Shown one piece after another: positions 1-37,635 of a stretch of 64,000 bases of DNA (the stretch's first letter is position 1; each line of letters begins with the position of its first letter). The notes beneath the pieces are model-generated. The model saw only the letters and a program-made list of their open reading frames with translations. It was not told the DNA's origin and ran no database searches. The translations under genes and the position numbers were made by a program. Source of the stretch: Marsupella aquatica (lineage: Eukaryota > Plantae > Marchantiophyta); assembly GCA_973895155.1 (NCBI GenBank), contig OZ316897.1:22171455-22235454 (forward strand). Reading direction: 5' to 3'.

Positions 1-5
1 GGACA

Positions 6-7344: not shown

Positions 7345-10300
7345 TTCACGACTTCAATAGTGAAAGTCAAAGTCCCCAATGTTCCCAATTGGCCTCCAAT
7401 CGGTGGTTGAATCTCTAGACCTTTGCCGCCTTGCCCTTCAATCTGTGCTTCATCATATAAATTCCAGTTTGACTTTAGAGTCATAATCCGATGTCTCACA
7501 AAATCAATCTGCGCAGCACTTTTATCAACCGCACAACCCTGGCGAGAATTGAGAAGAGCCGCAGCTAACATGGATCCGGTTCCGCAACAAAGATCCATAA
7601 CCCAGTCATTTTTCTCCGAGAAATGAGTAACAAACCAAGCACCCAAACCAACAGGCTTTTGGTACGGGTTCACAACATAGCCCAACGGATCAACAGACTT
7701 TTTGGTTACACATGGAACCTTAATGATATTGATGTGAGACTCATCCGGTTGGAAATTGTACATGTTCATGTTTCGGATGCCTTCCTCGCTGTAGAATCCC
7801 ATCGACCAGTTTTTGAAACCCCACGCCAATCGAGCACCGGCGGGACGCTCATGAATGTTGACCTTCTCCCAAATTCCAGACTCAACCCCACAGTTGCACA
7901 CAATCTCGAGCGCAAACATGACCATATTTGTTCCTGTAATGAATGGATCACAACAAACCTCCACTGCTTAGCAGCTGTCATGTTCGAAAAACTTCTCACT
8001 ATATCTACAACGTCCTTTTCCGTGAAGGACACTTCATCAAACTCCGAACCAGGCGCATTAAAACCATACGGAATGTCGGCAACGGCAAGAGTGTAAGGTT
8101 TTCCCTCCACAAAAGAATCCAAAATTCAAACATCCCCAACATGGAGATAGTAAGAGAAAGAATCTCCGTTAGCATTTTTCCATATTTGCTCCACGACTTC
8201 TCGTGCATCCTCGCCTAGCGTCTGGAGCCGGTTGTACCGATCAATTGCAGCAAGCACAAAATTCTTGAACACATACGGGATGTCAGCGGAGGGAACAATA
8301 ACCTCCCCCGCCGAATTATATTGCACAGGCGGAAGAACTTTATTTTTCCGCTTCGACCCAATCTTCAGCTGTAACAAAGGTCGCACAGAATTCCAATCAG
8401 AATGAAATTGCTTAACGAATATGAAAGCCGTTAAAAATCTTGGGAATGAAACGAGTTATGCAAAAATGTACTGATGGAATGGCAAGGCCGATAAAAATCT
8501 CGCGATGATTTTTGAATGGAACGAGGAATGCAAAAATCTACTAATGGAATGGCAAGGCCGATAAAAATCTCGGGGAGAGACAGGTGCTTACCGCTTCGCT
8601 CAAGTTCTCTGCCCATGTTCCTAGGACGGAAACATCCATCTCATTTGGAAACATTTCTCTGCACGTTGCCCAGTCGGGCTGCCCAGATATTTGCAAGAAT
8701 AATTTCTTCACCTTGGAAAGTTTTTTCAGCTTTTCCCCTTCCTTGTGCATTTGATCCAAGGTGATCACTTTCCCAATGACCCTATTCAAGAGCTGCTTAA
8801 CATGCTCCTTAGTTGACTGTCCTTGAAGACCTCAAAAAGTATTTAAATTGAGGTCACCTGCAAGTTTATTCATTTTAATCTCTTTCAGTGTTAAAGGTTT
8901 AACCTTTCCCTTTGCATTTGTTGTTGCCAAGATCTTTTTGGGTTGTCCCAAGACAGTCCCCTTCTCCCACATCTGGAAAACTTTCTCATGAAGATCCCAA
9001 ATTTCACCCGTTCAAAAAGCAATCTGGAATGTTGGGACATGTTTGGCCATGTTGTCACAAACACCGGGAGTGTATTGCAACATACATTCCTAACAACAAG
9101 CTTTGCGAACATCCTTGTTTGATCCTACATCCATTTCAACAAAGATATTGTGGCACGCACGAACTCTATCGATAAGAGTCATGTTCTTCCTATACTCCTG
9201 GTCATAATTGTGCTGGAAGCCCAACTTCTGGACCTCCGACTTGGTAAGTCTTGCATATACCCAAGCTTCCAGCTCACCATAAATCTGCTTCCCATACATT
9301 TTATACAACTCGGCCTTTGCCCGAGCACCATGATTTCCTCCAGTAATTCTATACTTCCATACTCTGGACTTTAGAATGTCCCAATCCTTGATTGTGGGAC
9401 AATCCTCCGGATCCACACACAGCACAAACGGTGCGCTAAAGTTAGTGGGGTTTTTCCTTAGAAGAATCTTGATATTCTCCACATGCAATTTTTCCACTGG
9501 TCTGATCAAAGTTGACTTCTCTCCAGCTTCATCAAAAATTAAATTGTTGACATGCAATAGGACAGTTGTCCTTTGAACCCTTCGCTGCATCAGCAGACTG
9601 AGCTCCGCTTTGATGGCATCAGTCTCATACATCGAAAGAGCAGTCTCCTCCTCTTCATCAATCTAGAAAATGCCGTTTGAAATTAGATTACGAAAGAAAC
9701 AGCAAGATTTTTATCGGAATCCTCTTTCGTCAATAGAAAATCAAAGTTTGGTAGCACTTACCGATGGAACCTCGGCTTGTATATCTGAACGAGGCAAACG
9801 CTCATCAAGCACCGGAGGCTCCATATTGATCGGGGCTTCCACTCCTTCCGGGGCTGTGGATAAACTCCAGCCTGTTCTCTTTCTCTTAACGCAGACTCCA
9901 GAACCAAATGGCCCCGATCCCTCAGATCCTCTACTCTCGCTTACATTTATGTAAGGCGCTTCCGAAATGCCTAAACCTGCACCGGCTGCACGACCTCGAC
10001 GATTGCCGCTGCCCCTTCTCCCGCCCTTGGAGGGACCAGCAACATCTTCCTTGATGTTCCCTCTCCCTCTCCCTTTCCCCCTCCCCCTTCCCTTCCTCGA
10101 ACCACTTTTGGGCTCGTCCAAAGCCGTACCTCCAGCGCTTTTTGCCGATGAAGCTCCACTCCCGTTAGAACCAGGCCTCTTAATAACTATTTTCCGGATG
10201 GGTCTGAATTCTTCACCTGTGAGCCTCTTGTACTCTGCGTTCACCCTTGGTAGCATGATGAGATCACAATCTTGGACAAACTGGCACACCCAAGCTGGGC

Positions 10301-10360
10301 CCATAAGATTCATTACTTTTGCTGACCTAACTTCCGCGACAAGCGCGTCTTCAGGGTAAC
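7345..10360 (-). pseudogene. Gene A, 3' portion: ParB/Srx-like domain + beta-class N6A/N4C DNA methyltransferase (element Y)
   Basis: ParB-like YRITGGNHGARA; MTase motif IV-like LAVADIPYG, then NPYQKP and motif I-like VMDLCCGTGS (PF01555-type order); phase-0 GT-AG introns at 9663-9761 and 8369-8591 join the ORF pieces in frame; several in-frame TAG/TGA stops and a frameshift near 7930. Confidence 0.85.
8427..8572. repeat. Three copies (60-70 bp spacing) of GCCGATAAAAATCTCG, a variant of the Y palindrome, inside an intron of gene A
   Basis: Copies at ~8427, 8487 and 8557; the last two lie in a ~70-bp tandem duplication. Confidence 0.7.
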
Positions 10361-10385
10361 ATCACCCTATTCATTAAAACTGGAA
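10361..10385 (+). repeat. Left TIR of element X
   Basis: 23/25 match to the reverse complement of 28384-28408. Confidence 0.88.
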
Positions 10386-11073
10386 TTTCTCTAGTCCAAA
10401 AGTTGACGTTTAAATCTATTATTTTACACCCCAAAATTCTATAACTTTGTCCCCAAAATCATACATTTTCGTGGCCAAATGTACACTTTTTAAAGTCTAA
10501 ATTTACAATTGTAATGCTCAAATTATTAAATAACTAAGTTATTAATTATAAATATTATTAATTAAAATATAAACATATACAAATATAGAATAAGACAATA
10601 TAAGTTTGACAATACAATAAATTCAAATGATAACATTAAAAATGACACACTCTAACCAAGGGTCATGAACACGGAACTCCAGGAAAACAAGTGATGTATT
10701 ATAAAATTATAAAACCTATTTTTACAGGGTCGAGATCACATTGACCCCTATATAGGGTCCAGATGGTTCTGACCGGTTGTTGAATGCATATCTGTAAAAA
10801 TCTATATGATGACCATCTCGACCCAAATGGAGGGTTCACATAATTTTGACCCGTTGTTGAATGTATATCTTTAACTTACTATTCTTTCTGTACAGGGTTA
10901 AGACCCGAATAGACTAGCCTTTTTATGAGTATATATCTATAAGTAAAACCCTATTTCTTCAGTAGAGGGTCAAGAACATTTAGACCCAAATGGATGTTAC
11001 GGTAAGCTTCACGCTTTCCTACAAACATATACCCCTAACTAATAATCAGTGTTTGGTGTAGGGTCGAGATCAT

Positions 11074-12333
11074 CTAGACCCAAATCTCATGATCCTCCTC
11101 CCCGCAGAATTCATTTGAGCAAGTAAATCTAGACCCTGACGGGTCATATTTCATATCGCGATTGCAAAAATCCAGAGGCTTTCTATTCCAAAACTTAGTC
11201 GTGAGGTCTCTAGTCCTCAGAACTTCCGAAACAAATGCCAGATGATTGTCTCTATAGGGTCTTGTATACTGATCCCCAATTAATGTCCTTATAAGGTCCT
11301 CGATCGCCTCCTCCGTCAATTCCTCAATTGGTGGCAATTGTTGCACTTCATTCTTGATATCCCAGGAAATTTTGTCCGCTGTAACATCCAAGACTGTATG
11401 GATAACAGTGGGAACCCATACCATACTACCCCACCTCTCCGACAACAGCGCATAAATGGCAGCCTGTTGATCACTATCCGATAAAACATTGATCATAGAC
11501 CACTTTGGTTGATTGATAAATAGGTAGTGTTGAAGATTGAAGGCATGATACAATTTCCTCAGCAGAGGCCACAGTATTTCGGGAAAGAAAGTATCATCCG
11601 TGGAGTGATGCAAAAATGAAGAAGGGAACAACCCACAATTCTCTGGATTTGCAAACGCCTTCATTGGAGAGTCATCAAGGAGGAGTGTATTAGTCTCATC
11701 GTATAATAAACCATAACGTTTCCAAACAACCCTCAAATCCTTCAAAAGAATATTTGCATTTCCGTCGGTGACGTCAGGCCTCTGGATTCCAGTGTCAAAT
11801 GTATCTTCTTGCGTCAGAATAAACTTGAATTGCTCTTGCTCTTCTTGAGTGAAGATCAAATGAATCATTTCATTTGCCCTGGGCTTTCTCGCACAAGTCC
11901 AGATGGCAACATCAAATATAGCAAAAGTTGCGATTAAGAACTCGTGAAGATGGGGACGCTCAACATACATAAAGTTAAATCCTCCACGTCTCCCCCAATG
12001 AACACCCTTGACACTTGTGGCACTTCGGCGCGGAGTTCTAACAGAATCCCAACACATTTTGTTGAGGTCAAGAATCAATAGCTTCCGTCTGATTGGACCG
12101 TGAAGTGGAGGCAAGGGTCCTGCAAACAAGAGACACCTATATTAGAATTGTGTGAGACAGAATAAAGGTAGGCTAGAGATGATCTCAAGCATGAACAGTA
12201 AATGAACAACAGTGCGCGACAAACCTGCAATTGGCAGAAGGGCAGATGTCAAAGAATGTGGAAAGCTTCGGAGACTATTGTCGACGCAATCCACAACTGG
12301 TAATGGCCCGCCTATCTCTGTGAAGGTAGACAT
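11074..12333 (-). CDS. FCP1/SCP (NIF)-like HAD phosphatase-domain protein; exons 12333-12225 and 12119-11074
   Basis: RKLLILDLN, ERPHLHEFL, FDVAIWT, LLKDLRVVW and NTLLLDDSPMKAFANPEN match the NIF fold signature; a phase-1 GT-AG intron (12120-12224) joins the 63-aa and 351-aa ORFs; motif I reads DLN instead of DxD. Confidence 0.8.
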
Positions 12334-12339
12334 AATAAT

Positions 12340-15300
12340 TTAGATGGCTGAATTTGAGGACTGAAGGTAGCTTGGGTTTCAACGTCACTTGCTGAAAGAC
12401 CCAAATTCATCTAGAAGGTTATCTCCTAATTGGTTTTGGATGTCCAAATTGATCCCTCCAGGAAGCGTTTCAACAAGAGCTGGCTCAGACTAGACTGGCA
12501 CTAATTTGAACTTATTTTTCCTATAATCCCTGGAACGCATAATCTTCTCAGCCTGATCTACACTGACTTGTTCGCCTTTTGATGGACCATGAATCCACAC
12601 ATAATGAGTAGCATTAGCTTTGAGAGATTTGTAACCAGTTCTACCAATTTCAACACCAGGTTTCCTAACAAAAGGGAGAATTACGGGGCTTCCAGTAGAA
12701 GAATCTATGAAAACAAGCTTATCCTCTTAAGCGCAAAACATTTGGTCCAAGGGAGAGGACGATGCACCTGCCTCGTCCTGAGGGGGAGTTGTGGCAGGGG
12801 AGCGACAAGCTTTCTTGGTTGAAAGGATCTCATCGAGTCGAGGTGGGCTAGGAATTGGGTGGCTGGCAGCGTCCTGCAAGGTGGTTTCCCAACCAACATC
12901 CAAGTTCGAAGACTGTTGCTCACGTTGTGCATCCTCTGCATGAAATGCGTCCCTCGAAGAAGGTACACCAGGAAGCTCGAGATCATCTCGACCATCATTT
13001 ACCTCATTAAATTTGGGCAATATTTCACCCTCCTCTTCCATGTAGCTTGGGATTTTGGGGCCCTCTATTTTGCGATGCTCCAAATTCTCCGCAAAAACTT
13101 CCTCAGAAACACTCGCCTCAACTGGAGCTGGAATCGAGGCCACTTCTTCCAAAACAGTAAGGGGACCGGCTTCAATGGCCTCAGATGGCAACGACTCTGG
13201 GGGTGGAATATATAAAACATGGCGGTTGTCATGGAGGCTCGCGCATAAGCTTTGATGAATTCCATCTCTTGAGCTGTGTCAGAATAAACAAAACAATCCC
13301 GACCAACAATGACGCAAGCTTTGAGGGTCTGCCCTCCGGAGAAGAAGTCAAGCACTGTGTGACCAGTGCTGGAGAAATAATCAACAAGATGCTTTGTCAT
13401 TCGTATAGGTTTAGCTTTGGGGTTTACAAAGCCCCCTCTCCAACCGACCATCTCATAAGACGGGGCCATCTTCTCCAATACTTCGACATCAACTCCAACT
13501 TCATCCTGCTTCTCTTTCCCTCTTTGTTGATCCTTGCTTTTCCCAGCGGAAGACCTCATCGGTAAGACGGTGAAGTCTTTGTCGTACTTAGCACTGTAAT
13601 TCCAGAACGCATAAAAATCATCGAAGAAAATTTGGGACCAGTCAGGCTCTTCATCACAACAAACTCCCCCAAAAATGATAGTGTCCCGTGCTCCTATGAG
13701 AAAGTCACCTTCCTCCTTGGGTACATCTTCACGGTAGTAACTACCGTACTCGAGCTTAGTGTGGACTTTCTTCTCATGACGGAACTTCTCGAAGGCACTC
13801 TGAATCTGGCCTATTAAAGGGCCCTGACGGACAAAAATAATTGCCAAAAACTCGGTTGAGTTAGACATCTCCACACAATATTCCAACAAGACAAAAATCT
13901 CAGCATCTGTCCACTGATGTTGTCGAATACGACCAAAGTCGACAAGGGCAAGTGCGCACGTATTATGAAAGGGTCCAACTGATTCCGGCTTCATCGTCCT
14001 CATAAGATTGTCGCTTAAAAAACTGCGATAAGGAGTATCCACCATAGCAGGAGTCCCACCAAACGTCTTGCAGTATATCTGCTCAAGCTTCACAATGAGA
14101 CTTTGCAGAAATGGTTCTTTGGCCCTATTTCTCTTTAGGAGATTGGACAGCCAAACCTCCCCAGCGAGCTGTCTCAGTTTTGGCAATTCACCGTGATCTA
14201 AAAATGCTGGCAAAAATTGAGTTAGCTCAAACCAAGTAAGTGAATCGGAAAAATGTTCGGGATACTTTAAAACGTAGTACTCCACAATTTTTTCCCTCAG
14301 CTTTGTCATGACTTTAAACGTGTGGGCCATGTCACTCATTGATTGAACATCAGATTTGTTCGCTGGGTCTTTCTTCAATAGAACCTTCTGATGATGAACG
14401 GCGGTGAACACCTTTAGAATGTCCTCACTACTGAGGTCCCCTTCAAAGCATCTAAACAATGCCGGTGTAATCATTTTTGTTGTCCGGCTTTTCCCATTCG
14501 TTTTTTAACCTAACTCACCAAGTCCATCAGGAAGAAGCCCCTTGACCCAATCGATGCACATTAGTCTCCAAGACTGGAACAGTTTCTCTTCCGAAAACAA
14601 CAACCAAAAAATATTCCTCAGGTCGGATTTTCTAATCGTTATTTTGGCCAAAGCCATGAAATCCTGATCCAAAGATAACAACAAAAGTCTGAGGCTCGAG
14701 ATGGTCTAGAGGTAGAATGAAGAAACTATGTTGAAATTTATTGAAAAAGACTTGAATACAAAAAATTGACCTCGAGGCTCGAGACAATCTCGAGCTAGAA
14801 GTGGATTTGAGTTCAAATATACCTGGAACTTTTGATGATCCATTAGTCTATTGGACCCAATCACGGGTCTCTTCATACGGCCACACTCGTCAAACTGTTG
14901 AGGGCATGGACCATAGTATCAAGAAAATAGGACTCATACTCCATTGTCTTGTTAACTGCATTTGCCCTTTATGAGTGTTGAGCAAGTATTGTTCTTGGAG
15001 TTTTGTCCGAAAGAATTCATGACTTTCGAAGCTGAAGACTCTTGGCGACCTCCTTCAACTTTGCATTGCTCTTAGACCAACCAATGATCCAAACTGCTGC
15101 CTTGGCCAAGTGTTGTCCACTAATTGCAAGGAATTGCACCTTCTTATTCTTCACACCCCACTCGAACTCCTTTCGATCCTCAGGAGTATTATCATAATGG
15201 AGCAACTGCGAACTCTCTCTTGAATACGGAATTAAATCCGCCACAGTTGGTACCATTCCAGGGTTTCTAACCATGGATTTTGCGATCTCCATGGCATGGT

Positions 15301-17787
15301 CCTTATTGAACATCCTATATACCAAAACTGCAGAAGGTGAATCTATACTAGTGACAGGAATGTCAAAAGTTTCATTCATGCCAAATGTGTAATACTCCTC
15401 AATCTCCTTAAGAACTTTGGCTCCTTCTTTAACGCTCTTTTCACCCGGAGCATCTCCTGGAGTGCCATCATCATCGGTATGTGCAATCACACTCGAAGAA
15501 GATGTCGGAATGAGATCTACCTTTACAGGCGCAAACTTTTTCTTAGGCGGAGCCTTCTTCGAAGCGCTTTCAGGTTTCTCAACCCTTTTCCTCTTTTGCA
15601 CCACCTTTGCCTCCTTCTTGTCCGAGCTTGACATCTTATCTCCTGAAGCTCCTGATTTCCCTTTACCTGTTTGTCTCCGATGACACAACACCCACTTCTT
15701 ACACCCTTCCTCGTCAAATTCACCAGCTCCAAAAACAAAATCAGGGGAAATGGATTGAAACTCTCCCACCTTGGAATCTGACATTATTCTCAAAACCTTC
15801 CAAGTGAAAGGAGTCGTGAATTCATTGTCATGATCAAAACCGTATTTCCGGCAATACAAGAATCCAAAAATTATATCTGCCCCAGTCATTTTGGACTCTT
15901 CCAACAGATTACTGGCAGTAAATCCATCGGGGAAGAATCCCATTGGTATCACGCTCAGTTGTTTCCTAGGAGCACATTCAATATTAAGATCGCACGAGTA
16001 GTTCTTGGAGTGAAGCCTAATGAGAGCCCATTTCCCACTCTCATGGTTCTCCACCGTCAAGACCATGTCCTTACCATTACTTGTGACAATGGAAACAACA
16101 GGCCCAAGTAAGCTGCAAACTAGAGGTTCGGTAGATGGAGACCTCGTCTTCAAACAAATAACTGACCCCTCCATCTCCTCAATTTCAGCTAGCTCAATGG
16201 CCCAACAAAATCCTATATCAGTTTGTCCAAGGCACAAAACCTCAAGGGCATGTTCATCTTCAACAATCAAATTGGGCAATCCCAATTTTGCACCTGGAAA
16301 AAATGAAAAATAGACCAATTGTCAGAATCACAGAAACGAGAAATCCCGTAAGAGGCTCGAGACGATCTCGAGCTTCCCTCACCCATTAACATAGTTGAAC
16401 TCAAATAAGTACAAAACCGTTGTTTCATGGCCAGATGTATTTGGGGGGAGGAATTGATTCTAAAATATCATAAACCCACCTACCAATCACCTTTTCGAAC
16501 CCCAATCATCAATGGAAACAAGTTGGAGGGTATTTCACAATCTATAGATGGCAAGCATGGAATACAATGGAAGCTCGAGATGATCTCGACCCTAAATTCA
16601 TGAACAATACTTTAGAAATAGAATACAGGAAGAGTCAATCGTGGCTAAACAGTCAACATTATCTAAATCTTTGCATTGTCATATTTTGTCATAGGAAAAC
16701 ATTGATTCTCAATTATGAGAATCTCCATCGAATACGAACATCATACTCAAAAGTTGACCAAGTTTACGTCTAACACCGACTTCAAAAACTCTCTAACTCG
16801 GGATGATTTCCATGATCAGAATGAGTTGGAGAGTACAGAAGTCGTTGACAGAAGCAAGCTTGGTCAACTTTTGATAGGATGTTGGTTTTCGACAGACGTG
16901 GTCTTCCATACACAAAAAATCTGACAAGGCAAAAATTTAGTACATTGTTGATGAATTGGATATTTTAATACTTGGGTCAAGATGATCTCGACCCAAGTCT
17001 CTAAAAGTTAGAATACAGAGACTCACAATTGGCATTGGTTCACCGTTAACTAAATCTTTGCATTATCATGTTTCTTCACTGAAGACATTGATTCGCAAAT
17101 ATGAGAATGTCGATCGAATACGAACAACATACTCAAAAGTTGTCCAAGTTTACCTCTAGCAAAGGCTTCAAAAACTCTCTAACTCGGGATGATTTCCATG
17201 ATCAGAACAAGTTGGAGAGTACAGAAGTCGTTTTCAGAAGCAAGCTTGGCCGACTTTTGATATGATGTTGGTTTCCAAAGGAGATTGTTTTCCATCGGAA
17301 ATAACAAAACATCCGTCAAATACGAACAACATATTCAATAGGAATCTAAATCTGCCTTTTCCATAATCCCTTTTGGATATGCTGTTAGTATTTGACAGAT
17401 ATAGCATGACAGATACATCAACATGAAAATGACAGAAACCTCTTAACTTTGTGGATATTAGGCTCGAGACGATCTCGAGCCTAATCTCAGTTACAAACGA
17501 TAAACTTGTTCACTTTGAAGCCACCTCTTGAAGCAAAGTAATGCAAAAAATATCAATCGGCTCGAGATGATCTCGACCCTCAAGTGGATCAAAAACCAAG
17601 TATGATTTGAAGCTTGAGATGATCTCGAGCCAAACCTCCATCTAACAATGAGAAAAGATAATATATTACGTTTGATTGTGCGGTGGATGTTCTGCGATGA
17701 ATCTAGAAGGGTCTGAAGCTCCATCGCTACAGTTGATGCGTCGTACTCGGCGAAGTTATCCTTGGAGAAATCTACAACGGTCGACAT
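12340..17787 (-). pseudogene. Gene C: second ParB-like + MTase-like gene with degenerate catalytic motif (element X)
   Basis: ParB-like VQFLAISGQHLAKA in ORF 15017-16318; MTase C-terminal half NPKAKP...FSSTGHTVLDFFSGG in ORF 13065-14474; LALVDFGR at the apparent DPPY position; phase-0 intron 14664-14822; probable first exon from ATG 17787; several stops and frameshifts; both ends approximate. Confidence 0.72.
16570..17290. repeat. ~390-bp tandem duplication, each unit starting at an X palindrome
   Basis: Shared blocks such as TTCAAAAACTCTCTAACTCGGGATGATTTCCATGATCAGAA at ~16781 and ~17167. Confidence 0.8.
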
Positions 17788-17999
17788 GGCTACTGGATAG
17801 TGGATACTAGATCTGGGTGATATAAGAAAAATATTATCTCGAGGCTCACAGGAAAATCTTGATCCAAACGGCTATAAAATATCTTGAGGCTCAAAGGGGA
17901 TCTTGACCCTAAACAAGTCTCGAGGAAAAAATGACGATCTAGAGGCAAAAGCGACGAAATATCTAGAGGCAATAAGCAAGAGGCGAGTGAGGCGCGGAG

Positions 18000-18290
18000 G
18001 GGAGGTAGGCAGGGAGGCGAATGTGCAAATGAGGGTGGCGACGTTGTGAATGTGGACTATAAGCCGCTCGGTCGGCCCTGAGTCAGGCTAGGGTGCCCGG
18101 CGACGGATGCCTGGCCACGTGTAGGATGCCACGCGCCCATGCGTGGGAGTGAATCTTGAGTTGAGTCATGATGACGGTGCTGTCACACGTACTGTCATTA
18201 TTGCGGTCCGTACTTCACCCTGCCGCTAGTTCATCCCTGCCATTGGTTTGACAGAGCCATCTGGTCAGGCAGGATTTTATATATTGCTCG
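18000..18290. promoter_or_regulatory. Probable divergent promoter between gene C (-) and the transposase-like gene (+)
   Basis: GC-rich island with CACGTG (18116) and TATA-like TTTATATA (~18276), followed by a pyrimidine-rich 5' UTR-like tract; the flanking genes point away from it. Confidence 0.4.
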
Positions 18291-18942: not shown

Positions 18943-19176
18943 ACCTCGAGATTGTCTCGAGCTGAAGACTTTGTTAATCTATATCTCATGGTTTTTGTGG
19001 TCCATTCTTTACCTCGAGATCGTCTCGAGCTGAAGACTTTGTTAATCTATATCTCGTGGTTTTTGTGGTCCATTCTTTACCTCGAGATTGTCTTGAGCTG
19101 AAGACTTTGTTAGTCTATATCTCGTGGTTTTTGTGGTCCATTCTTTACCTCGAGATCGTCTCGAGCTAAAGACTTC
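18943..19176. repeat. 68-bp tandem repeat (~3.4 copies), each with a CTCGAGA-N3-TCTCGAG palindrome
   Basis: Units start at 18943, 19011, 19079 and 19147. Confidence 0.92.
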
Positions 19177-19260
19177 TTAATCTGTTACTGCTAGTTCAGT
19201 TGGTTTATTTTTGCTAGTCACTTTACCTCAAGATCATCTCGAGGTACAACAGCTTCCTAT

Positions 19261-27018: not shown

Positions 27019-27022
27019 ATAG

Positions 27023-27688
27023 TTGGCATTGACATATGAGTTTTGGCCAAAAACCAACCACGGAACTGGTTACAAGGTGAATAGTACAGGAACCTCTGAA
27101 CCATTGGGGGAACCTAGTAGTAGTACACAGAATCCAGAAATGGTGGAGCTTCAGAATGAGTACCTTGAAGAGATGGAGGATCAAACTGCACCATTTGTTG
27201 GCACTCGACACGAGCAAGAACTTGCCCGTTGGATTCCTCTCCAGGACATTCAAGAGGGCCACTTTGTATTTCTTCGTCCAGAGGATGAATGGGAAAAGAA
27301 GAATGGCAAAGAACTTTTTTGGTTGGTGAGAGCTTTGGGTGTTGTGGACCCAAACCATGAAATCCCTTCAGGAGACTTGCAATGCAATAACAATATTTCT
27401 ACTAGTACAAGGTATGCTCCTATGTTCCAAGTGCAATGGTGGAGGCCTAAACATGGTAAACATGATGCACCGGATCATGTGCGATATTCACGTTGCTTTC
27501 AGACCACTAAGACTTGGGAGATGGATCCTGGGTTTGATAGTGTCACTGAACGTTGGCAATTTGCTAATTCTACTATGTATGGATTCAAGTCACGCTCTAG
27601 AGAAGAAAATATAATTGATAGAGGTTTGACCATTCCCAAGAATGTTTTGAAAACACTCAAAACCTACATGGAAGGGATTGTTCATTAA
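27023..27688 (+). pseudogene. 3' part of the element X transposase-like gene
   Basis: FWP...IQEGHFVFLRP...FWLVRA...FQVQWWRP resembles, from memory, the C-terminal domain of DUF7869-type bryophyte proteins; same strand as 19261-20480 and resumes right after the LTR end. Confidence 0.5.
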
Positions 27689-28383
27689 GTCAAATTAAAG
27701 TTTTCTAGTAGTCAGAGTGAGGGAGTCTAAGTATGTCAATTGGTTTGTAATGTCTTAGTTTACGTACTAGTTGGTTACTAGTGAATCTAAGTAACTTTTA
27801 TAATATTTTGGGAGACTAGTTTGAATAGGTGGGCAGGAGGTATTAATTGGACTTGGCCGGATACCTTTATATTAATTGCTTTAATTATAATTACATAATA
27901 CTATCTGACTATATTACAAGAAGTAATATTCGTGATGGGATGTGACTGCCTCTAGTAAACCTTAGTTTCAACTCGAGTTGCTTACTGTAGAATGTACTAA
28001 CAAATTAGTTAGTTACTTGAATTAATATGGATAGATACCATTCTGACAAGTTTATAAATTAATGCTTTCATTTATTACGTAGAAGGTTTAGCTAGGGTCG
28101 AGATCATATTGAAGTTAGCTTTAGTTATATTATATTACTTACTTACTAGTTAGTCAGATTGAATCAATTTTCTACTTCTTATCCAACATATTTTACATTA
28201 TTATCACCCAAATGTTTTTCTTTAGAATCCAAATTAATATTTCATTTTCCCCTATATACAATCTTGATTCCCCAAATGTACATGATCTTGTGCCCAAATA
28301 TACAACTTTCACTGCCCAAATGTACAATTCTTGTACCCAAAAGTATATATTTTGGTGCCCAAATGTCCAAAGATCAAAGAATT

Positions 28384-28408
28384 TTCCAGTTTTAATGAAT
28401 AGACTGAT
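28384..28408 (-). repeat. Right TIR of element X
   Basis: Reverse complement matches 10361-10385; followed by TSD TAAC. Confidence 0.88.
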
Positions 28409-28790
28409 TAACTCTCAAGGGATTTCTCAAGAAAGTTCTCCATGGTGACAATGACAGAGGTGAATCCCTTGCCTCCACACATTGTCAAGAAACTCAGACC
28501 CTCTTTCAACACTTTTGCCTCTCCCTGGCTAATCAAGTACTCACAGATCGCCACACCAACAACGGGGCCAAACGAGAGAGTAACCTTTGCGGATTTTTGC
28601 ATCTGGACATAAAGGATAGGAGACTCACAGTCTGCCATATCCTTGGATTGTAACCTGGTGTTGCGGAGTACCACTGTTTCTTGATGAACTTGACCTCTTC
28701 ACAAATGTCTTTGCTTGTCCAAATCGCGTTCGTGAGGCTTGTCATGAGACTTTCAGCCTCGGCAGATCCACCCTTCCCACTAGGACCCAT
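28409..28790 (-). pseudogene. Gene A, 5' portion (probable start MGPSGKGG..., frameshift near 28650)
   Basis: ORF 28408-28674 joins in frame to the sequence below 10360 once X and one TSD copy are removed; a TTTTCAG acceptor lies just upstream of ATG 28790. Confidence 0.7.
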
Positions 28791-29128
28791 GATGACAAAG
28801 TCTGAAAATTTGAATGCAAGGAGCAATAAATTTATCGCTCTGACAAACCCAAAAACCAAAAACCGGCATGCAAACATCGATACAATGAACTCAAAAAGTC
28901 CTCATTCACGTACAAGCATTAGGTCATTCCACGAGCGATACCAACTCCGATAAAATTATCGCAAACAAATATGAGCACGATATAAATTGACGGCCGAGAT
29001 TACATTATCGTACGTGTCAACATCTAAAAATGAGACCAACACCAATAAAATTATCGCAAAAGTGGTCCAAACAAAAAGTGAGCCTTCTTTAAATTGACAA
29101 CCGAGTGTACATGTGATAATGTGCCTAA

Positions 29129-29708
29129 TCAATCATCCCACCCAAGATCAAACCGCGCTACAGCAAAGCGAGAGATTAGCTTCTTGGGCCATTGGGGTAT
29201 ATGAGTGATCCTATGATCATAGGCCCATAGCCAATGAAAATCTGTGGCACCGGTCTCAGGATTAACTACAGCTACTGAATAGCCGCGTGACGGAACGTCA
29301 CAACAGGCATTTGTGCAACACTGACACATCTCACCATTGTCAAGGACATTTGTCCATAAACAAGATACATAAGTTAACCTAAATAACGGACAAAGAGGCC
29401 TAGGGGGGAGTTGATGAGTCCTATACGAATATAACTTCCCACCAGTGTCAATCAAAAACTCGGTAGCAAGAGGATTGTCCAGCTGGTCAATCACATCCTG
29501 AATCTCATCAAATGCTCTACGTCTGTTGTGGGCATAGAATTCTGGTTCATAGGCAGGATTGCCCTTCACAACATGACAGCAGTGCAGTATAAAATGTTTT
29601 ACTGCACCGGTTTTAAGAAAAAGCAGGATAATACTTCTAGAAAATGCAGCATATCTATCCCACCGGATATAAATTTCTCCCCCTACCTGGTCTACGTAGA
29701 AGTGATAT
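29129..29708 (-). pseudogene. Unknown gene of element Y, split by the solo LTR (5' part from 34323 to ~34360-34469)
   Basis: Frame stays open from the TSD to 29129 (YHFYVDQVGGEIYIRW...CQCCTNACC...); no recognised domain. Confidence 0.45.
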
Positions 29709-32700
29709 TGTGATGCCTAGCCAGGAATCATTCGGCCAGTTAAGTGGGTAAAGCAGGAATGCACCCTAGAAACACCTTAGTATAGGGACAAAACAAGGAA
29801 AATATAAACAATTAGGGGCGACTATGGAACCCAGGCCGAGGCCGGAGGTAAGGACGCTGGGGGTGAAAACTCGATTAGGGTTACGGCACGCTAAGCGTCG
29901 GCGGCTAGGAAGGATCAACGGGAGGAAGGACCGGAAGAGGAGAGGGGTAAGGAGCGCTTGCAGGAGATGGTGGCTCATTTGCGAGCATGAACTAGGCAGA
30001 CGACTACGGGAGGCCAACTACTGTCAGCTGCTTAGGCAAGCACTCGGGGAGAGAGTAGATACCGACGATCGACCTAAGGAGGGTATGAGCAACGTCAATC
30101 AAGCGGCACATTTCTGGGGATGCCTGTTCGAACGGGCAACTGAGTACATCAAGACTTACGAGGACAAAGAATCAGAAAGGGCAGCTCGAGAACGACAAGA
30201 GCTCGCTCGATTGTGGGAGCTGTAGAAGACGGCTTTCTTAGGAGGTGAACTCATCAAGGCCGAGTTCTTGTGGACTCCTACTTCCAATCAGCTCGACGAT
30301 CTTCTGTTTTGTGAAGACAGAATCATCGGCATTCGAGAGGCCATCAAGAACTGCAACGACATACACTGGGAATTGAAGGGTAGCACGGAAGGGTGGACCC
30401 AGGCAACGGTGCTAGGAGAAACCTCCACGGCAGCCGAGATGAAGAGGAAGGGAGCCGTCAACGATGAAGCCACCCCGGCAAAAAGAACGAGGTCGGCGGC
30501 ACCAAAGAAGCCAGCCGAGCAGCAGAGCAGGAGGCAGGGAGAAGCCGAAGAGGAGGAGGTTGATCCCATTAATGCCATTCCAACCATGGATGACACCTGG
30601 AAAGGCTGGGCGACAACCCTACCAGCGGAGGTGCAACTACATTTTGCACGGGAGGAGGATGCATGCTTTACGGCCATGCAGACCAAGAAGTACCAAGGCT
30701 TCATGGCCGGATCCGGCTTAGAGGCCTTTGTAAGATTACCATGGCTGAAGCCGGAGGTACCGGATTCAGACCTATTAGAATTCATGGGGTCATGGGAACC
30801 CGAGACCAATTGCACGAGGATATATGGGAAGGATTTCTATCTTACTCCCAAGGTGATTGCCGAAGTGTTTGGCTTGCCAATAGGCAATAAGACCAAAGTT
30901 GATACCAGGAAGACCTTGCCTGACAAGGAGTTCCGGTCGTTCCCCGGGCCATCAACAAAGAATGGCTTCTTCCGGAACACCTGCACCAACCCGCACATAG
31001 GAGAGATGATCGACTTCTTGCGGGTGACCATGCATTGTAACTTGCCGAGGGCAGAGATCGGCAAGGCACAGGTCTATCTGGCAGAGAGGCCAGACCCAAG
31101 CCGGGACTACAACGGGTACCTCCTCAACCAATTGAAGAAGATCTTAAAGGAGGAGCAGCAGGTAATCGGCATGGGGAGCGTGTCACGGCTTGGCTATCAC
31201 ATGCCGCTATTGTGCCGGTATGCCAGAGGTCAGACCTTTGCCCCAGTACTTCCCCTGCAGGTAAGGGTACCCGAGGAAGCTCCAGCACCGAGGCCGGTAG
31301 CAGAGAAGCCTCAACCACCTGTTAGCCCTACGATTGAGCAGGTGTTTAGGCCAAGGAAGGAAGACTTGCCAATGCAGCAACCAAGCATGCAGAATCTGCT
31401 GAAAATGCTGGAGAAGGAAAAGACGGCACCGGCACCGGCTTCGGCAGCAGCACCAATACAGGACACTGCCCCAGAGGTCAACCTAAGCAGAATCAGGCCA
31501 GAATCCAAGCCGGGTGTTCGAATGTACGTGGGAGTCTCAAGCTCTGAATCTGAGGCAGAATTGCCTGAAGCTCCTACCGGCGAAGAGGAGAGGGAGAAGC
31601 CGGAAGTCCAAGAGGTGGAGGAGGCAGTGGAGGACTGCAGCCATGATAACTCCGGCTATGGGTTGGACCATCACGTTCCAGGAGTAAGGACCTGTGGCCG
31701 GTTTATCCCCACACTTCCAAGGGTAGTTCGAGGGGACCCCAACCAGTAGAGTAGCCCCGAGTCTCCCCCACCAGATGTTGCTCCCCCGAGCTTTGACGGC
31801 ATAAAACAGACGGTGCAGGAATTTCAGGAGCAAATCAGGCAGGAAGAGGAGGTAGCCCTGGCTAGGGAAAAGGATTTTCCAGGAGGAGATTGGCCGGAGG
31901 ACATCAGGCGGCTAGCCAAAAAAGGAAGCAAACCTCTAGCCACGATTGAAGAGATCCACAAGACGGCTTGGGAGCAGAGGCCGCGATGGACGATGCCGAT
32001 CACTTCTACTTACTCCACCTACGCTAAGAATAGAGCCATGGAGTATGGTGAGATATTTGGGGAACTTGCGCTCGGCATCTTTGGGGAGGAGTTGGAGGTA
32101 GGACCCTTTTTCCATAGGGAGCAGTTGGAGAAGCACCAATTAGAAGAAGCGGTGGCTTTAGAGAGAAGCAAGAAGGACGAGGTCATCCGGCGGCTTAGGA
32201 GGATGGAAGCCAAGATTGAAGATCTAAGGGCGGCCAAGAAAGCCCAAGATGAACTGCGGATTAAGCGGCATGAGCTGAACATCATGCAGGGGCAGTTGGA
32301 CACAGCGCAGGCTGATAATCAGATTATCAAGGATAAACTGACTCAGACCCAGGGAGAATTGGCCGACGCAATCAAGGACAGGGAGAAATGGAAGAAGGAG
32401 CTGAGAAACGCAGAGGAGGCCCATATATCAGTCAACAACCGGGTCACGGCGGAGACTCAGAGAAGGGAGAGGGCGCTGAAGGGAGAGCTCGAGGTCATCC
32501 GCAGAGTCCTTGAGCAGAAGGAGGCCGAGTTAGGGAAATCCTATCAAGGGATTATTGCGCTACAGCAGGAGCTTGCGTCCCTGACGGCCAGCTTCAAGGC
32601 CGACCTGCGGGAGAAGGATGCCCAGCTCGACCAGACTTATGCCAAGATGAATAACATGGAGTCTGAGGTCGTAGCGGAGCTCGACAAGGAGCTAAGAGCA

Positions 32701-34322
32701 ACCCAGGAGGAGAGGGCTACCACCAAGAAGGAATTGGAGGAAGCCCACAGGGAATTGGAGGAAGCCAAAAACGAGTTGGAGGAGGCACGTAAGGACCTGC
32801 ATGAGACCCAGGAAGAGTTGGAGGAAATCACGAGGAAGATGGAGAACCTACAGCGGCGGGCCGACAACCAAACTGAGCGGCTGAAGAAACAAGCCGCAGT
32901 ATTTAAATGCTTAGCTGCATCAGGTCCATCTCCCGTTGGGGCAAACCAGTTACCAGGGGTGGTAATTGCCGAAGGACCAGCCGTGACACACGGCCCGGTG
33001 CCGGACATTGGCGGCAAAGGGAAGGAACCGGCTGTGGAGATAGTGAAGAAGAAGAAGCGGAAACCTTCGGGGCCCGGAGGTTATTCGACCCCTCAAGCCG
33101 TACTCAAACCGGCACCAACCTCCGGCATGAACACGGCAATAGATCCCGCTATCACCAAAGGTGGGGATGGCGCGGCCCAAGCCGAACTACTCAGTAATGA
33201 GGCCGGTATCCCAGATCCGCCTCTTGAGCAGGCCGGGGAGACCGTAGCCGAGAATGATTCCCGAGCCGATGCCGATGCCGATGGTGGACCCAGTCAGGCC
33301 GATGGAGAGTTGACTCAGTCACGGGTAGGTAATCTATCAGAGAACGAACCTACGGCAGTGGCTGAGGAGGAAGCGTTGGGGTCGTCCATTGAGGATCCAC
33401 CACCGGTGTCGTGACGGTGCAAGGGCGCCGTTCCTTTTAGGAAGGGCGGACGTGGAGGTAGGAGGCGTGAGTGGGCAGGGCGGGCGCTGATCTCCAAGTT
33501 TAGGATTAGGATCAGGACCAGGAGGCGGCCCTGACACTTAGCTTAGTGGAATTGCGGTTCCACTGGCAGGAGCAACACTTGTGCTCCTACCTTGTTGTAC
33601 ATAGGTAGATTCGGGCAGGTAGATTACTGTTAGGTAGATTAGGCTTACGCTGCAAAGAATTAGGCGGATCCACTACCAGGATAAGTACCTGGGCAGTGGG
33701 GAGCTCAGCGCCTCTTCTTTAGCAAGTTTTTAGTTTGCACCAGCCGGGCTGGGATCAAGTAGTAAGAGAAGCTCTCGGTTAGTCATACCGTGACCTTGTG
33801 TATATTCATGTTTCCTCATGCCTAAGAGCTGAATAGAGTTGGCCTCACGGCTTAGTTCGCAGAGCTTGTGTATGAGATGTACTGTTTGTATGGCAAGTGC
33901 ATGGTATGACTCAGTCAGAAGGAGTCATTTTGCTATTTGTGTGTCGCATTAACTTGTGTGAAGAGTGCCCACATCAACCAGAAGGGAGGAAAGTAAGCAA
34001 GGGAGTGAGAGTTGGATGTGTCGAGCTGAAAGAGGTCTTAGCGGCTTAACCAAGCCTATTGGGGATCATTCCGGCGGCGGAATCCAAACATACCTAACCA
34101 GAAGGAGAGGAAGACAAGGGAAGGCCTAGATTAGGCCGGCTACGTATCTCATGACCCGATGAAGGATCTGTCCAGTATATGTGTGTAAAAGGCTAATAGT
34201 AATAGTAGAAGGAGGTTAGCAACGTCCCATGCCGCTAAGCCGCGGAAATGGCCTCGCCAAGCCGCGGGAATCGGCTTGAGCTGGGGGTTTCTTGGGTTTA
34301 GGGAGCCATGGGACGCACCACA
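29709..34322 (+). mobile_element. Apparent solo LTR (4614 bp) of a long-LTR gypsy family, containing a ~1195-codon frame
   Basis: Ends TGTGATGC...GCACCACA (7/8 inverted repeat); 5-bp TSD GATAT at 29704-29708 and 34323-34327; no gag/pol. Confidence 0.82.
29824..33414 (+). pseudogene. LTR-encoded protein: PMD/Transposase_32-like segment + long coiled coil; one frame with two TAG stops (30223, 31747)
   Basis: ORFs 29824-30225, 30268-31749 and 31813-33414 share one frame and the gaps between them are open; LLEFMGSW...IYGKDFYLTPKVIAEVFGLP resembles plant gypsy accessory ORFs; ELEEA heptad repeats. Confidence 0.72.
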
Positions 34323-34799
34323 GATATGCGTTATTATAAAATGGTTTGCTACCAGCCTGCAAATCTTTAAAATTAGTGATTCATCCAGCTTCCTTAGCTG
34401 GTCCATCAGGGCACCATCCCCCCATTTCGGAGGATCCACAAAGGGTACAAAAATGCGTCGCTCGAGCATGACCTGATCAGCGAATAGAAATCAGGAATAC
34501 ATTTTGGAGAACATACTCATTACAATTCTACAAGTTTCATTCAACTTTATAGTACCTTGTATAACGGGCTGTGAAGCCAATGCACTTGTTAGCTAATTGT
34601 CTGTAGAAGCGCAAAAAACTACACTCTGGACCACACAACCCGAAGTCAGGCGAGGCAGGGTCATTTATATTCAAAGTGTTTTTTTACAAGCTCTTCTCGA
34701 GCAAACCTTAGATCACCCAAAACAATTGACTACTAAATTGACCAGAGGAATGAGGAGTGCGATAAATTTATCGAATGTTCGCAGCAATGCCTCATCCAC

Positions 34800-35348
34800 T
34801 CAGACTTGTCCATGCCATGCAAGAATTGTCCGCTTCCCGCTTTCTCCAAGATTCACCCAAACTCTAAGAAACGCATCTAATCGGTCATACGAGAAGCACC
34901 CAAGCATATCTATGGGAGGGAGGAAATGAGTTTCCTCTCGGAAGACCCTAGCAATATGTAGGTTTGAGAGAAGGTCGGCATTAGGAATGCTTGCGAGCAT
35001 TTGGTTTATGTCATTAATCTCACGGACTGCATATTTCAGTAAAGCCCAAAATCGTGTACCAACAACAAGATGGTTCCATTTCTTCGAGGTGGCTCCAAGA
35101 CAAATGATTGTTCTCATTTGAGCCAGTCGTTCTTCGGGTAAAAGTTTTAGGTCAAGGCCAAGGTGTTCATCTTGTGTGCAAGACAACGCCAAGAGAGGCC
35201 AAATGTGAGATTCAACGAGTTGATCAGGAAGTCCATTCAACAGACTTCCGCATTCCACACCAGGCACTTTTCCTTGAATATATTTCCTACGCTCGTGGGC
35301 TAATACGGATGCCATCTTAGCAACGATTAGGTTCTCCGACGCAGCCAT
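34800..35348 (-). CDS. F-box-like domain protein (cargo of element Y)
   Basis: LLNGLPDQLVESHIWPLL ... CLGATSKKWNHLV resembles a split F-box; ATG start; flanked by Y palindromes. Confidence 0.5.
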   Translation of the reverse strand: MAASENLIVAKMASVLAHERRKYIQGKVPGVECGSLLNGLPDQLVESHIWPLLALSCTQDEHLGLDLKLLPEERLAQMRTIICLGATSKKWNHLVVGTRFWALLKYAVREINDINQMLASIPNADLLSNLHIARVFREETHFLPPIDMLGCFSYDRLDAFLRVWVNLGESGKRTILAWHGQV

Positions 35349-35388
35349 GAAGCAGAGCTACCAAAACCACCAATAAAAGTACCTTCAA

Positions 35389-35872
35389 TCACCAGGTGTA
35401 ACCAAAGACATCCACAGTACCAACCCTGCACGACAATTTAAAGATTAGGACTCGGACCATATTGTATTCGGTGCACATGGGTAGGACTTGTTTACTTAAA
35501 TGTGTCCTTACAAAACACGCCTCAATGTGAAGGTCGCAACACTCATCGTGAAAGGTTGACCCAAGGGTCCTTGTTCCAAATCTGACAACATAAGTATGCC
35601 AATTTATGGTACTTGTTGTCAAGAGGACGACAACAATAGTTACAAGAAAACTCCAAAGAATGGAGACACGATGTTAACATCAACCTCGAACGGATTGGAA
35701 CTCCTGCACCATTCATTCCGTAGAACTCAATCCGGAGAGGATTCTGCCTATCTCCGGGATCAGTACCACCCATCCACAACGGTCCTACACCAATGGGGAG
35801 AACTTTACGTTGCACGAGTTTCTTGTACAACCGGCGTGCACGTTTGACACGATTTTGAATTAAGACAGCCAT
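35389..35872 (-). pseudogene. Unknown small gene (ORFs 35543-35872 and 35389-35622, possibly frameshifted)
   Basis: ATG-start ORF co-oriented with the other Y genes; no recognised domain. Confidence 0.3.
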
Positions 35873-36060
35873 TTGTCACTATACCTTTGATCCACCAAGT
35901 CCAATCGACCTTTCGTTGTGCCTCCTAAACCCTGCAGCACTGCGACATCATAGAGGAAGATGAGTCTCCAAACAAAACAGAGGAAGATGAGTCTCACAGG
36001 AGGGTGCGATAACTTTATCGCACCTCGCATTCATCTTGAAGACATGACTCCCTCACACAC

Positions 36061-36393
36061 TCAAGCAATCTTCAATCAATCACAGGAATGGAAACTCCGA
36101 TAAATTTATCGGAGTCTCAAGCAATCTTCAATCAATCACAGGAATGGAAACTCCAATAAATTTATCGGATTCTCAAGCAATCTTCAATCAATCACAAGAA
36201 TGGAAACTCCGATAAATTTATCGGATTCTCAAGCAATCTTCAATCAATCACAGGAATGGAAACTCTGATAAATTTATCGGAGTCTCAAGCAATCTTCAAT
36301 CAATCACAGGAATGGAAACTCCGATAAATTTATCAGAGTCTCAAGCAATCTTCAATCAATGACAGGAATGGATACTTCGATAAATTTATCGGA
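36061..36393. repeat. 56-bp tandem repeat x6, each with the palindrome CCGATAAATTTATCGG or a near variant
   Basis: Units start at 36061, 36117, 36173, 36229, 36285 and 36341. Confidence 0.95.
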
Positions 36394-37635
36394 CCTTGAA
36401 TATAATTTATGGAATGAATGCGCACTGGATCAAAGGAATGCAACAGAGGAATGTAGAATGCGATAAATTTATCGCAATCCTCTCGGATCAGGACATTGAC
36501 ACCAAATGACAAGTCAACCTTACATGGATGATACTCGACTAGAATGGTAGTTCCGATAAATTTATCAGGTTCTCTGGAGAAAGAGTCAAGTCTCTTGGGA
36601 GGAATGCAAGACTTGATAGGAGTTCAGTATTCACTCTGAGTGAGGTGTTGGTCGCTCCGGCGAAAATAAACTTTTTATGGGCAACCCGCTCCTCTTTATA
36701 TAGGGGATGCTCTAACCATGGTAACTTTCCCCCTTAACCATGGTTACTTTCCGCCTTAACCCGGGTTAGTGCGTGGTCGACCCTCGATTACGTGGTTTTG
36801 GACCAAGTTACTCATAGTTCGGACTTTTTCACAGAGCGAATGTAAAACTCAATGCACGTATCGCTCCCTGCATTCCCGCGGCGATGCAATGTAGGCAACT
36901 CATGTTTTTTTGATTTTTTGGCAGTTTTATCGGAGATTGCATTGCCTTAGAAAAAAAATGGAATTGGGCTAAACGAGAAGTGTGTCACACTTCTCGGTCA
37001 GTCCAAAATCGTGTTATTATCTTTCCTAGTAATTTGGTCTCTATCATTTTTACTAGGCTCATTTGACTTCTCTATAGACTGAAATCCAATGAGAACATTG
37101 GCATTTTTCTCTCCTTCAGGTACCTCGCAAATAGATGCATCACTCTCTGTTGAGCTACCATCCTCCATAGATCTCCTCGACGCATTTAGAGGGGCACTAA
37201 AAACGTGACTAAAACTATTCCCTTCTACAGCTCCTTCTAAACATTCAGACACAACTTGTGCTATGATATCGGATTCTCTATCTCCTTCCTGATCTTCGTC
37301 CTCTGATCCACTCGACTCATCTGAAAACACAATTGGACTCCGTGGCTCTCTATACATAACCTGAATGCCACTAAGACCTCTCCTCGACACTTGGAGCCTG
37401 GAACCAATCACAGTCCGCCCTGGAGAACTTGGAGAATCTAGAACTCTCAACGGTGAACTATTCACACGTGCAATCCCAACGACTCCGCAAGCTGCAGGAA
37501 AATTGAGCACTTGTTGACCACGATTCCCACGGACCATTCGGGAAAGGGCCGAGTCTGGACTTTGTAATCCGATTCTGTGACGGGGTCCCTCCACGGTAAG
37601 TCACCATTAGTGTCACGGCGAGAGTTCCCTCACGT

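Follow-up and report, generated by a model that had tools for sequence, protein, structure and literature searches.

Element-specific palindromes and a ParB-like methylase gene in nested transposon DNA of the liverwort Marsupella aquatica

The giant DNA transposon Sola1-1_Ec32 of Ectocarpus has a 4-bp target site duplication (TSD) and carries, opposite to its transposase, an accessory gene that joins a ParB-like domain to an N4/N6 methylase; in the accessible part of the paper its authors propose that the product binds and modifies its own element (PMC12477816). The Bostrychia Plavaka accessory protein PAG3 is also ParB-like and has tandem inverted-repeat arrays beside its gene, and there self-binding was proposed by analogy with parS and VANDAL (10.1101/2025.02.11.637652, accessible part). 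ParB-linked methylases of phage origin have been noted in algae (PMC4738411), and PMC12477816 cites Iyer et al. 2011 for green-algal cases. Here we describe a 64,000-nucleotide stretch of the genome of the liverwort Marsupella aquatica (assembly GCA_973895155.1, contig OZ316897.1, forward-strand positions 22,171,455 to 22,235,454), which we call the window and whose first letter is position 1. In the window a Sola-like transposon, X, has inserted into a cargo region, Y. Y holds gene A, which codes for a ParB-like and amino-methylase product, X holds gene C, which is only a distant homolog of gene A, and each of the two carries a palindromic word of its own. The idea that such a protein recognises its own element is not new in kind, having been proposed in 2025 for algal transposons; what is new is the land-plant case, and the defined protein-site pairs with a different word for each family. 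An earlier note on this DNA, made from the letters alone, knew of no such system in land-plant transposons, and we found no report of a land-plant ParB-methylase transposon among the literature matches listed.

With Sola1-1_Ec32 the locus shares the strand layout of the accessory gene and the 4-bp TSD, both in X, and the combination of a ParB-like domain and a methylase, which is present in gene A and weakly so in gene C. Set side by side by description, the two differ in that Sola1-1_Ec32 comes from a brown alga, that its main text does not speak of palindromes and the accessible parts name neither a binding word nor a phosphatase-like tail, and that two nested families with different words are found here. 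The likeness to PAG3 lies in a ParB cargo with repeated inverted words near its own gene, whereas PAG3 belongs to a red alga and an EnSpm/Plavaka host, its ParB domain is fused to a 2-oxoglutarate (2OG) oxygenase, and the methylase sits on a separate gene, PAG2. The repeats of PAG3 are moreover adjacent arrays, and the accessible main text has neither family-specific words nor covariation, although the supplements could list repeats. As to the sites themselves, VANDAL/VANC, Spm TnpA and AtMu1 offer a parallel, since there too each family has short motifs of its own, which lie in non-coding DNA of the cognate element and are multiplied in tandem (PMC5735166; 10.64898/2026.08.24.746577, accessible parts). 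Those proteins are however unrelated, their motifs are non-palindromic, they have no methylase domain, and their function has been shown, whereas our case is one of sequence only.

X spans 10361..28408 (18,048 bp, unstranded, including a 6.5-kb retroelement remnant). An inverted-repeat search gave its terminal inverted repeats (TIRs) of 25 nt at 10361..10385 (plus strand) and 28384..28408 (minus strand), with arms that are 92% complementary, and the TSD is the 4-bp TAAC. We compared contigs of four public runs, which hold 39-48% of the sampled X words, with the window for insertion joints. All four contain the empty-site joint from 10356 to 28409 with four shared letters, which shows that X really did insert, and that it did so in the first coding exon of gene A. 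The earlier picture of two nested cargo transposons thus stands for X, with its TIRs, TSD and empty site, and is less clear for Y, whose ends are unproven and in which we recognised no transposase in profile scans of the open reading frames (ORFs) or in transposase comparisons.

In a de novo count of gapped palindromes, the word of X and the word of the outer region are exactly the top two classes. TCGAGA-N3-TCTCGA occurs 10 times exactly and 17 times with at most one mismatch, and all of these sites are in X (11064..20275, unstranded), while 100 shuffles gave a mean of 0.05 and a largest value of 1. Most of them are found in introns or near the divergent promoter, and four belong to a 68-bp tandem array (18942-19183); with distances of 703-5527 bp from the nearest X TIR they are not subterminal. 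The outer word had been proposed as the 16-mer CCGATAAATTTATCGG, which is found exactly only 2 times, but its core CGATA(A/C)-NN-(T/G)TATCG has 18 sites with at most one mismatch against 0.11 expected, and none of them is in X. Its sixth position was widened to A/C after the related metagenome locus L001, described below, had been seen, and the two C-type sites of the window were already in the de novo count. Thirteen of the 18 sites lie left of 36985 (28824..36567, unstranded), upstream of gene A, in intergenic DNA and in an array of six 56-bp units (36060-36393), four (43374, 46098, 46230 and 46453) lie in the adjoining region 36985-46933, and one (45831) is in an insert with CACTA ends. Weaker sites are found in the introns of gene A, at 8489 and 8559 (2 mismatches) and at 9703 (3 mismatches). 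Each word is absent from the other element even at up to two mismatches, so that the words do switch at the TIRs of X, as had been seen by eye, and three nested retroelements have no site at up to one mismatch.

The sites also avoid exons, in agreement with the first reading of the locus. When up to two mismatches are allowed, 18 of the 20 X sites and all 17 Y sites left of 36985 fall outside exons that cover 59% of X and 69% of Y; the exons were drawn by eye and the sites are not independent of each other. Multiplication by tandem duplication holds for a part of them only: there are two arrays (68 bp x 3.6 in X, 56 bp x 6 in Y), and grouped by their flanks the 20 X sites fall into 17 groups, so that in X array copies are a minority, and 24 Y-type sites into 14. 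The palindrome feature is thus real and well above chance. Because 11 of the 15 single mismatches in the window sites are CpG transitions, the window copies seem to have carried 5-methylcytosine (5mC). The observed/expected (O/E) CpG ratio of X (0.62) and of Y (0.76) is the same as in the nested retroelements (0.66-0.68) and gives no sign of protection.

Gene A is on the minus strand and is broken. Its 3' part (7345..10360), recognised by open frames and by profile and fold matches, consists of the end of exon 1, an intron at about 9663-9761, a ParB exon (8592-9662) with three in-frame stops, an intron (8369-8591), and a methylase exon with one stop and one frameshift, which is cut at 7344. 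The 5' part of exon 1 (28409..28790, minus strand), frameshifted and homologous to the N-terminus of L001, is continuous with 10360 once X is removed. With the in-frame stops written as X, the ParB exon was searched with phmmer against 1.84 billion representative proteins at E up to 0.001, which gave 129 matches, at least one of them (P0045) a spurious repeat protein. Among 28 matches that were looked up, 16 clusters have an organism name: Chara (3), Riccia (4), Adiantum (2), Ginkgo, Holothuria, Ptychodera, Branchiostoma, Haliotis, Mercenaria and Clastostelium. An insensitive word-based protein search returned no match for this exon among longer proteins, in contrast to the 129 of phmmer, and none for the methylase ORF of gene C; nor did viral contigs, searched with A-type alignments, gene C and the transposase, or GTDB genomes yield relatives.

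The structure model of the ParB exon has a pLDDT of 90 and folds like ParB, Noc and KorB, including the presumed DNA-binding part. Foldseek aligned it to Noc/ParB over 273-304 columns (E 1e-5 to 1e-4), and VIA put first PadC, with the ParB/Srx fold (Z 10.1, root-mean-square deviation (rmsd) 3.1, 100 aligned), and KorB over model residues 32-315 (Z 8.9, rmsd 9.2, 186 aligned), with the KorB DNA-binding domain alone at Z 4.4, rmsd 3.8 and 101 aligned. The ParB link rests on these folds, because a search of PDB sequences with a hidden Markov model (HMM) of the family gave no real match; Pfam HTH_ParB matches 2 of 89 family members, at a best E of 3e-4. With the bacterial proteins (6sdk, 7ng0, 8qa8) the family shares the order of a ParB/Srx domain with a helical, presumably DNA-binding region after it, and the short dyad site; it differs from them by an identity of 10-14%, the GGNH motif, the missing ParA, the fused methylase and the introns. 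The CTP motif of ParB is arginine-rich, GxxRxxA. CTP clamping cannot be assumed for the family, since it carries GGNH and not such a motif, and from the sequence it appears doubtful; the gene A product is therefore filed here as ParB-like and not as a ParB CTPase.

In the methylase exon of gene A, DIPY precedes DLCCGTGS, which is the beta-class order of a catalytic motif ahead of the SAM-binding one. The C-terminal domain of the full-length homolog P0023 matches the beta-class N6-adenine methylases CcrM, M1.HpyAVI and M.BceJIV, with N4CMT also among the fold matches. At the place of the catalytic motif (D/N/S)PP(Y/F), gene A and the related loci L005 and L008 have DIPY, and homologs have DPPY, DFPY, DAPY, DVPY, DIPH or DMPQ/K. 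N4CMT of bdelloids (PMC8885841) and MpDN4MT1 of Marchantia (10.1101/2021.02.12.428880) are likewise beta-class amino-methylases of bacterial origin that act on eukaryotic DNA, but according to the accessible parts of these papers they are host genes that have no ParB domain, and the DIPY of gene A corresponds to TSPPY in MpDN4MT1. The description of gene A as a ParB-like and amino-methylase gene is thus borne out by profile, family-HMM and fold matches. As a separate observation, the second-best feature match (0.96) of a part of the ParB exon (9093-9662, minus strand) in the ESM Atlas is to a fungal cluster, 31% of whose members have DUF3723, a domain that is named in the accessible parts of Starship papers, and the DUF3723 proteins of Starship cargo may thus be ParB-like.

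A single metagenome scan gave 22 loci related to gene A, and in three of them, L001, L005 and L008, a repeated palindrome lies above every shuffle (0.00-0.04 expected). L001, which is 55-58% identical to gene A, has three CGAGAC-GG-GTATCG sites, one of them ahead of the start and the others in intron 1, and the equivalent intron of gene A is the one that holds the weak site 9703. L005 has five TCATGA-NN-TCATGA sites and L008 three TCATGC-TA-GCATGA sites. In all three loci the sites are upstream of, and in introns of, the locus' own ParB-methylase gene, and a cross-table of four words by 25 sequences is diagonal except for three single strays with one mismatch. In a protein tree of 30 rows (20 of the 129 phmmer hits, 8 of the 22 loci, and genes A and C), A and L001 form a clade with 100/100 support, and L008 is the sister of L005 (99/92). 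The words thus follow the protein tree in the few loci where this can be judged (A/L001 and L005/L008), which was the check that the earlier note had suggested. In an intron of the methylase that is orthologous between L005 and L008, a site lies at the equal position with both arms changed and the symmetry kept, i.e. a compensatory change, and the same two-arm change is also seen at non-homologous sites. Dyad symmetry, the free spacer and this change of both arms argue for a dimeric reader of the sites. A threefold palindrome in L018 was not counted, as it arises from a tandem repeat of about 584 bp.

Some further observations on related sequences stand by themselves. In L005, two of the five sites lie within an ORF (1-700, minus strand) that is situated upstream of the ParB-methylase gene and runs divergently from it, like the divergent layout of X, and this ORF does not match the DUF7869 transposases. 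The Ginkgo gene model P0049 and 15 low-GC loci (L002-L018, excluding L005 and L008) have a DIPH/DIPR segment in place of DIPY; these loci have no palindromes, and they are perhaps an old or domesticated seed-plant lineage. Three phage contigs (L023 5001-5052, L024 977-1028 and L025 5001-5052) hold pairs of CGATAA-NN-TTATCG 38 bp apart within longer inverted repeats, and none of them matches the family HMMs.

In X, gene C (11074..16291, minus strand, delimited by profile matches, frames and splice sites) is divergent from the transposase on the plus strand, and like gene A it is a pseudogene in the window copy. From its N-terminus, which has no assignment, follow a ParB-like region (ISGQH near 15100), a helical region, an amino-methylase-like region, a low-complexity linker and an exon for an FCP1/NIF-like phosphatase (11074-12119), with introns at about 14664-14822 and 12120-12224. 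The profile matches are N6_N4_Mtase (E 1.6e-4) and NIF (E 1.6e-17), and judging from frames and splice sites the two parts appear to be fused. At the place expected for the catalytic motif, gene C has by eye VDFG (ORF 13065-14504), and of the methylase only the C-terminal half scores, so the enzyme looks dead. What is left of the proposed homologous ParB-methylase gene is accordingly a weak homology to gene A, with no recognisable catalytic motif. The phosphatase-like ORF (11074-12141, minus strand, PF03031, E 1.6e-17) has DLNK in place of DxDxT, so it might lack activity or belong to a variant class.

The transposase of X is preserved in two parts, at 19279..20490 (33% and 46% identity to residues 5-417 of P0144) and 27015..27688 (62% identity to residues 1022-1228), both on the plus strand. 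P0144 is a DUF7869 protein of 1230 aa from Calypogeia fissa, and the transposase is 62-64% identical to proteins of that species; together with the intron-split germin-like cupin gene described below, this likeness by itself points to a land plant, probably a bryophyte. Between them, where the catalytic core (P0144 residues 418-1021) would be expected, X has instead the remnant of a long terminal repeat (LTR) retrotransposon (20491..27014, plus strand, ends approximate) with reverse transcriptase, RNase H and integrase and a self-BLAST match to 37615-43219. We take DUF7869 to correspond to the Sola-type DDE transposase, whose core is the part deleted in X. A target preference for AWWT/AWDT has been called a hallmark of Sola1 (PMC3845634), and X is filed as Sola-like and not as Sola1 because its single TSD, TAAC, departs from this preference. 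According to the accessible text the TSD of Sola1-1_Ec32, biased to end in A, is likewise off it (PMC12477816).

The explanation that we prefer, though we put its chances at about even, is that the ParB-methylase accessory protein of each element binds the palindrome of its own element and keeps or marks the chromatin of its own family as active. The parts of this proposal differ in strength. It is highly probable that the sites are selected protein-binding sites; that the ParB-fusion is their binder is fairly probable, and we choose it over the transposase because the sites recur in the introns of ParB genes and lie far from the TIRs; and if it does bind, the outcome is quite likely to be activation or protection rather than repression. 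The ParB-fusion would bind as a dimer, with the helical domain after the ParB/Srx domain presumably recognising the half-site in the manner of ParB, Noc and KorB, and the family specificity would mean that own copies are served and a nested neighbour is not helped. In A-type proteins, which keep D-x-P-Y, the methylase could add an amino-methyl mark near the loading sites, N6-methyladenine (6mA) being likelier than N4-methylcytosine (4mC), and self-methylation is plausible for this clade only. For the X-type protein, whose methylase looks dead, the effector might be the binding itself or the attached phosphatase-like domain. Sliding driven by CTP would be the weakest step. By analogy, binding would lead first of all to activation or protection of the VANC kind, with self-repression of the KorB kind as the second choice. 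In both window copies the system has failed, as the genes are broken and the sites are decaying by CpG transitions. Of the self-recognition system that the earlier note had proposed, the family-specific part is favoured by the recurrence of own words in 3 of 22 loci, the compensatory change and the apparent ParB-type DNA-binding fold, while the lacking catalytic motif of gene C, and the GGNH/ISGQH of the family where ParB has its arginine-rich motif, speak against both proteins depositing 6mA or 4mC.

Several of our results weigh against this explanation. Gene C scores poorly against the family HMMs (independent E-value 0.005 for ParB and 1.2e-7 for the C-terminal half of the methylase), its alignment to the family breaks up into three weak, though collinear, pieces (hhalign probabilities 24%, 10% and 3%), it is a long unplaced branch of length 4.69 in the tree, and word-based protein and viral-contig searches found no relatives in which its motif could be checked. 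For gene A, the match to the DNA-binding domain alone is weak (Z 3-4, which is common for helical bundles), and the family, with GGNH, GGGH, GGTH, GGQH or ISGQH, has no conserved arginine patch. In L001 the flanks of the three sites are shared, and one position of the palindrome does not fit the symmetry. A dispersed repeated palindrome is absent in 19 of the 22 related loci (two clades); 15 of these are one low-GC, CpG-depleted group (O/E 0.13-0.46), which when pooled returned only homologous coding positions, and four are short and nearly all coding, but all 19 count as misses. With two sister pairs, finally, coevolution of the protein with its word cannot be separated from shared descent of the whole element. 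To the same side belongs the binding of family-specific motifs by the AtMu1 transposase and Spm TnpA in Arabidopsis, where they activate the cognate copies (10.64898/2026.08.24.746577, accessible part).

The last point leads to the strongest alternative, though an unlikely one, in which it is the transposase, or some TnpA-like portion of it, that recognises the palindromes and so activates or assembles its own family, while the ParB-methylase is just carried along. A full-length relative of the X transposase has indeed a weak TNP1/En/Spm match in its N-terminal part (PF03017, E 5.5e-5), and many X sites surround the promoter that is shared with the transposase. The TnpA and VANC motifs quoted in the accessible sources are however non-palindromic words of 8-10 bp, the X sites are not subterminal, no transposase was seen in Y, and sites recur within introns of the ParB gene in all five site-bearing elements. 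A second alternative is self-restraint: the ParB-fusion would bind the sites but act as an operator repressor of the KorB kind, holding down its own gene and the transposase, with or without methylation. Sites do concentrate ahead of the accessory gene and over the divergent promoter, and the plasmid repressor KorB is among the best full-length structural matches; we regard this as unlikely, as intronic and intergenic sites several kb from promoters, and their tandem multiplication, resemble rather the activating VANC targets (PMC5735166, accessible part).

It is improbable that local duplication or hairpin-driven conversion produced the palindromes as neutral by-products to which nothing binds. 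Some sites are in tandem arrays, ten Y sites share upstream context, and the 19 relatives that lack palindromes would fit such an origin, but 17 of 20 X sites have unrelated flanks, the arms are fixed while the spacer varies, non-homologous sites of L005 and L008 show the same change in two arms, and the nested retroelements are free of sites at up to one mismatch. Least probable of all is a role of the sites as parS-like handles, with which the excised element would be tethered or compacted between excision and reinsertion, so that mobility and not chromatin would be served. The ParB/Noc fold and a 14-15-bp dyad dispersed over a large element would suit such handles, but there is no ParA-like gene among 26 scanned window ORFs, and the fused methylase and phosphatase-like domains indicate chromatin or transcription.

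If binding by the ParB-fusion is correct, a bacterial segregation module has become a tool for family-specific self-recognition in eukaryotes, land plants would have a source of 6mA or 4mC in their transposons, and there could be a new set of programmable sliding DNA modifiers. The loci supply precise candidate words and, in the half-sites TCATGA and TCATGC with proteins that differ little, a natural swap pair, so that a single binding assay could test it. One may go further and speculate that the giant transposons of eukaryotes, from liverworts to sea animals, have captured a ParB clamp and employ it with a code similar to parS, in which the protein of each family would load on its own palindrome, spread, write 6mA/4mC (or, in the X-type, bring in a phosphatase-like domain), mark self and hold off 5mC silencing by the host, and of which the five protein-site pairs would be the first entries. 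We consider this wider view unlikely.

The outer region is less clearly bounded than X. The earlier note had placed Y at 7345..36985, and this has to be given up: the left edge belongs to the cut made by a separate CACTA-type element, and 5 of the 18 outer-word sites are to the right of 36985. The end of the CACTA-type element (6945..7344, minus strand), with subterminal repeats and the terminal sequence CACTAGAAG (minus strand, 7344), truncates gene A. Within 29129..35875 on the minus strand, Y has three further cargo-like ORFs, at 35875-35389, at 35345-34800 (faintly F-box-like) and at 34470-34323 joined with 29703-29129, the last split by a 4.6-kb retroelement (29704..34322, plus strand) with a 5-bp TSD, whose empty joint from 29703 to 34323 is found in three of the four runs. 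To the right follows a continuation of Y or a sister element (36985..46933, minus strand) with a split ORF (43751-43224 and 37570-36998), interrupted by a 5.7-kb retroelement (37571-43223; joint from 37570 to 43224 in 4/4 runs) and by a 2-kb non-autonomous insert with CACTA ends (43952-45954; 3-bp TSD, inverted 24-bp subterminal arrays, joint from 43951 to 45955 in 4/4 runs), the one that holds the site at 45831. A joint from 46933 to 47267 in 3/4 runs points out an insert of 333 bp. Y is thus a multi-copy cargo region that either runs beyond 36985 or is abutted there by a sister element.

At this border is a perfect 10-bp inverted pair, GAGAAGTGTG-T-CACACTTCTC (36975..36995, unstranded), a candidate for the right end of Y or for an internal motif, and CACACTTCTCGTTT recurs at 46738. 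The word CACACTTCTCG is found as a head-to-head pair at 36975-36995 and once more 9.7 kb away (46738-46751), and may represent element ends or a second binding motif. None of the contigs listed bridges the pair by at least 31 letters; the contig 36677-36997 was rejected as a bridge across 36985, as it reaches only 12 letters beyond. A right end of Y near 47763, where 13 of 17 letters are like the X TIR, was also rejected since a chance site at 8776 scores equally, and contigs that end at 47756 and a nearby drop in depth are a hint only. Contig depth does not give copy number, and the summed depth over the non-coding middle of X (16337-19004), far below that of the coding parts, was for this reason not used.

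Two ORFs further to the right touch none of these elements. At 54678-55925 (minus strand) is an intronless, GC- and CpG-rich ORF for a short-chain dehydrogenase (adh_short, E 1.6e-21) that looks foreign, and by eye fungal-like, and at 61451-62280 (minus strand) is a germin-like cupin gene of two exons with a start that resembles a signal peptide.

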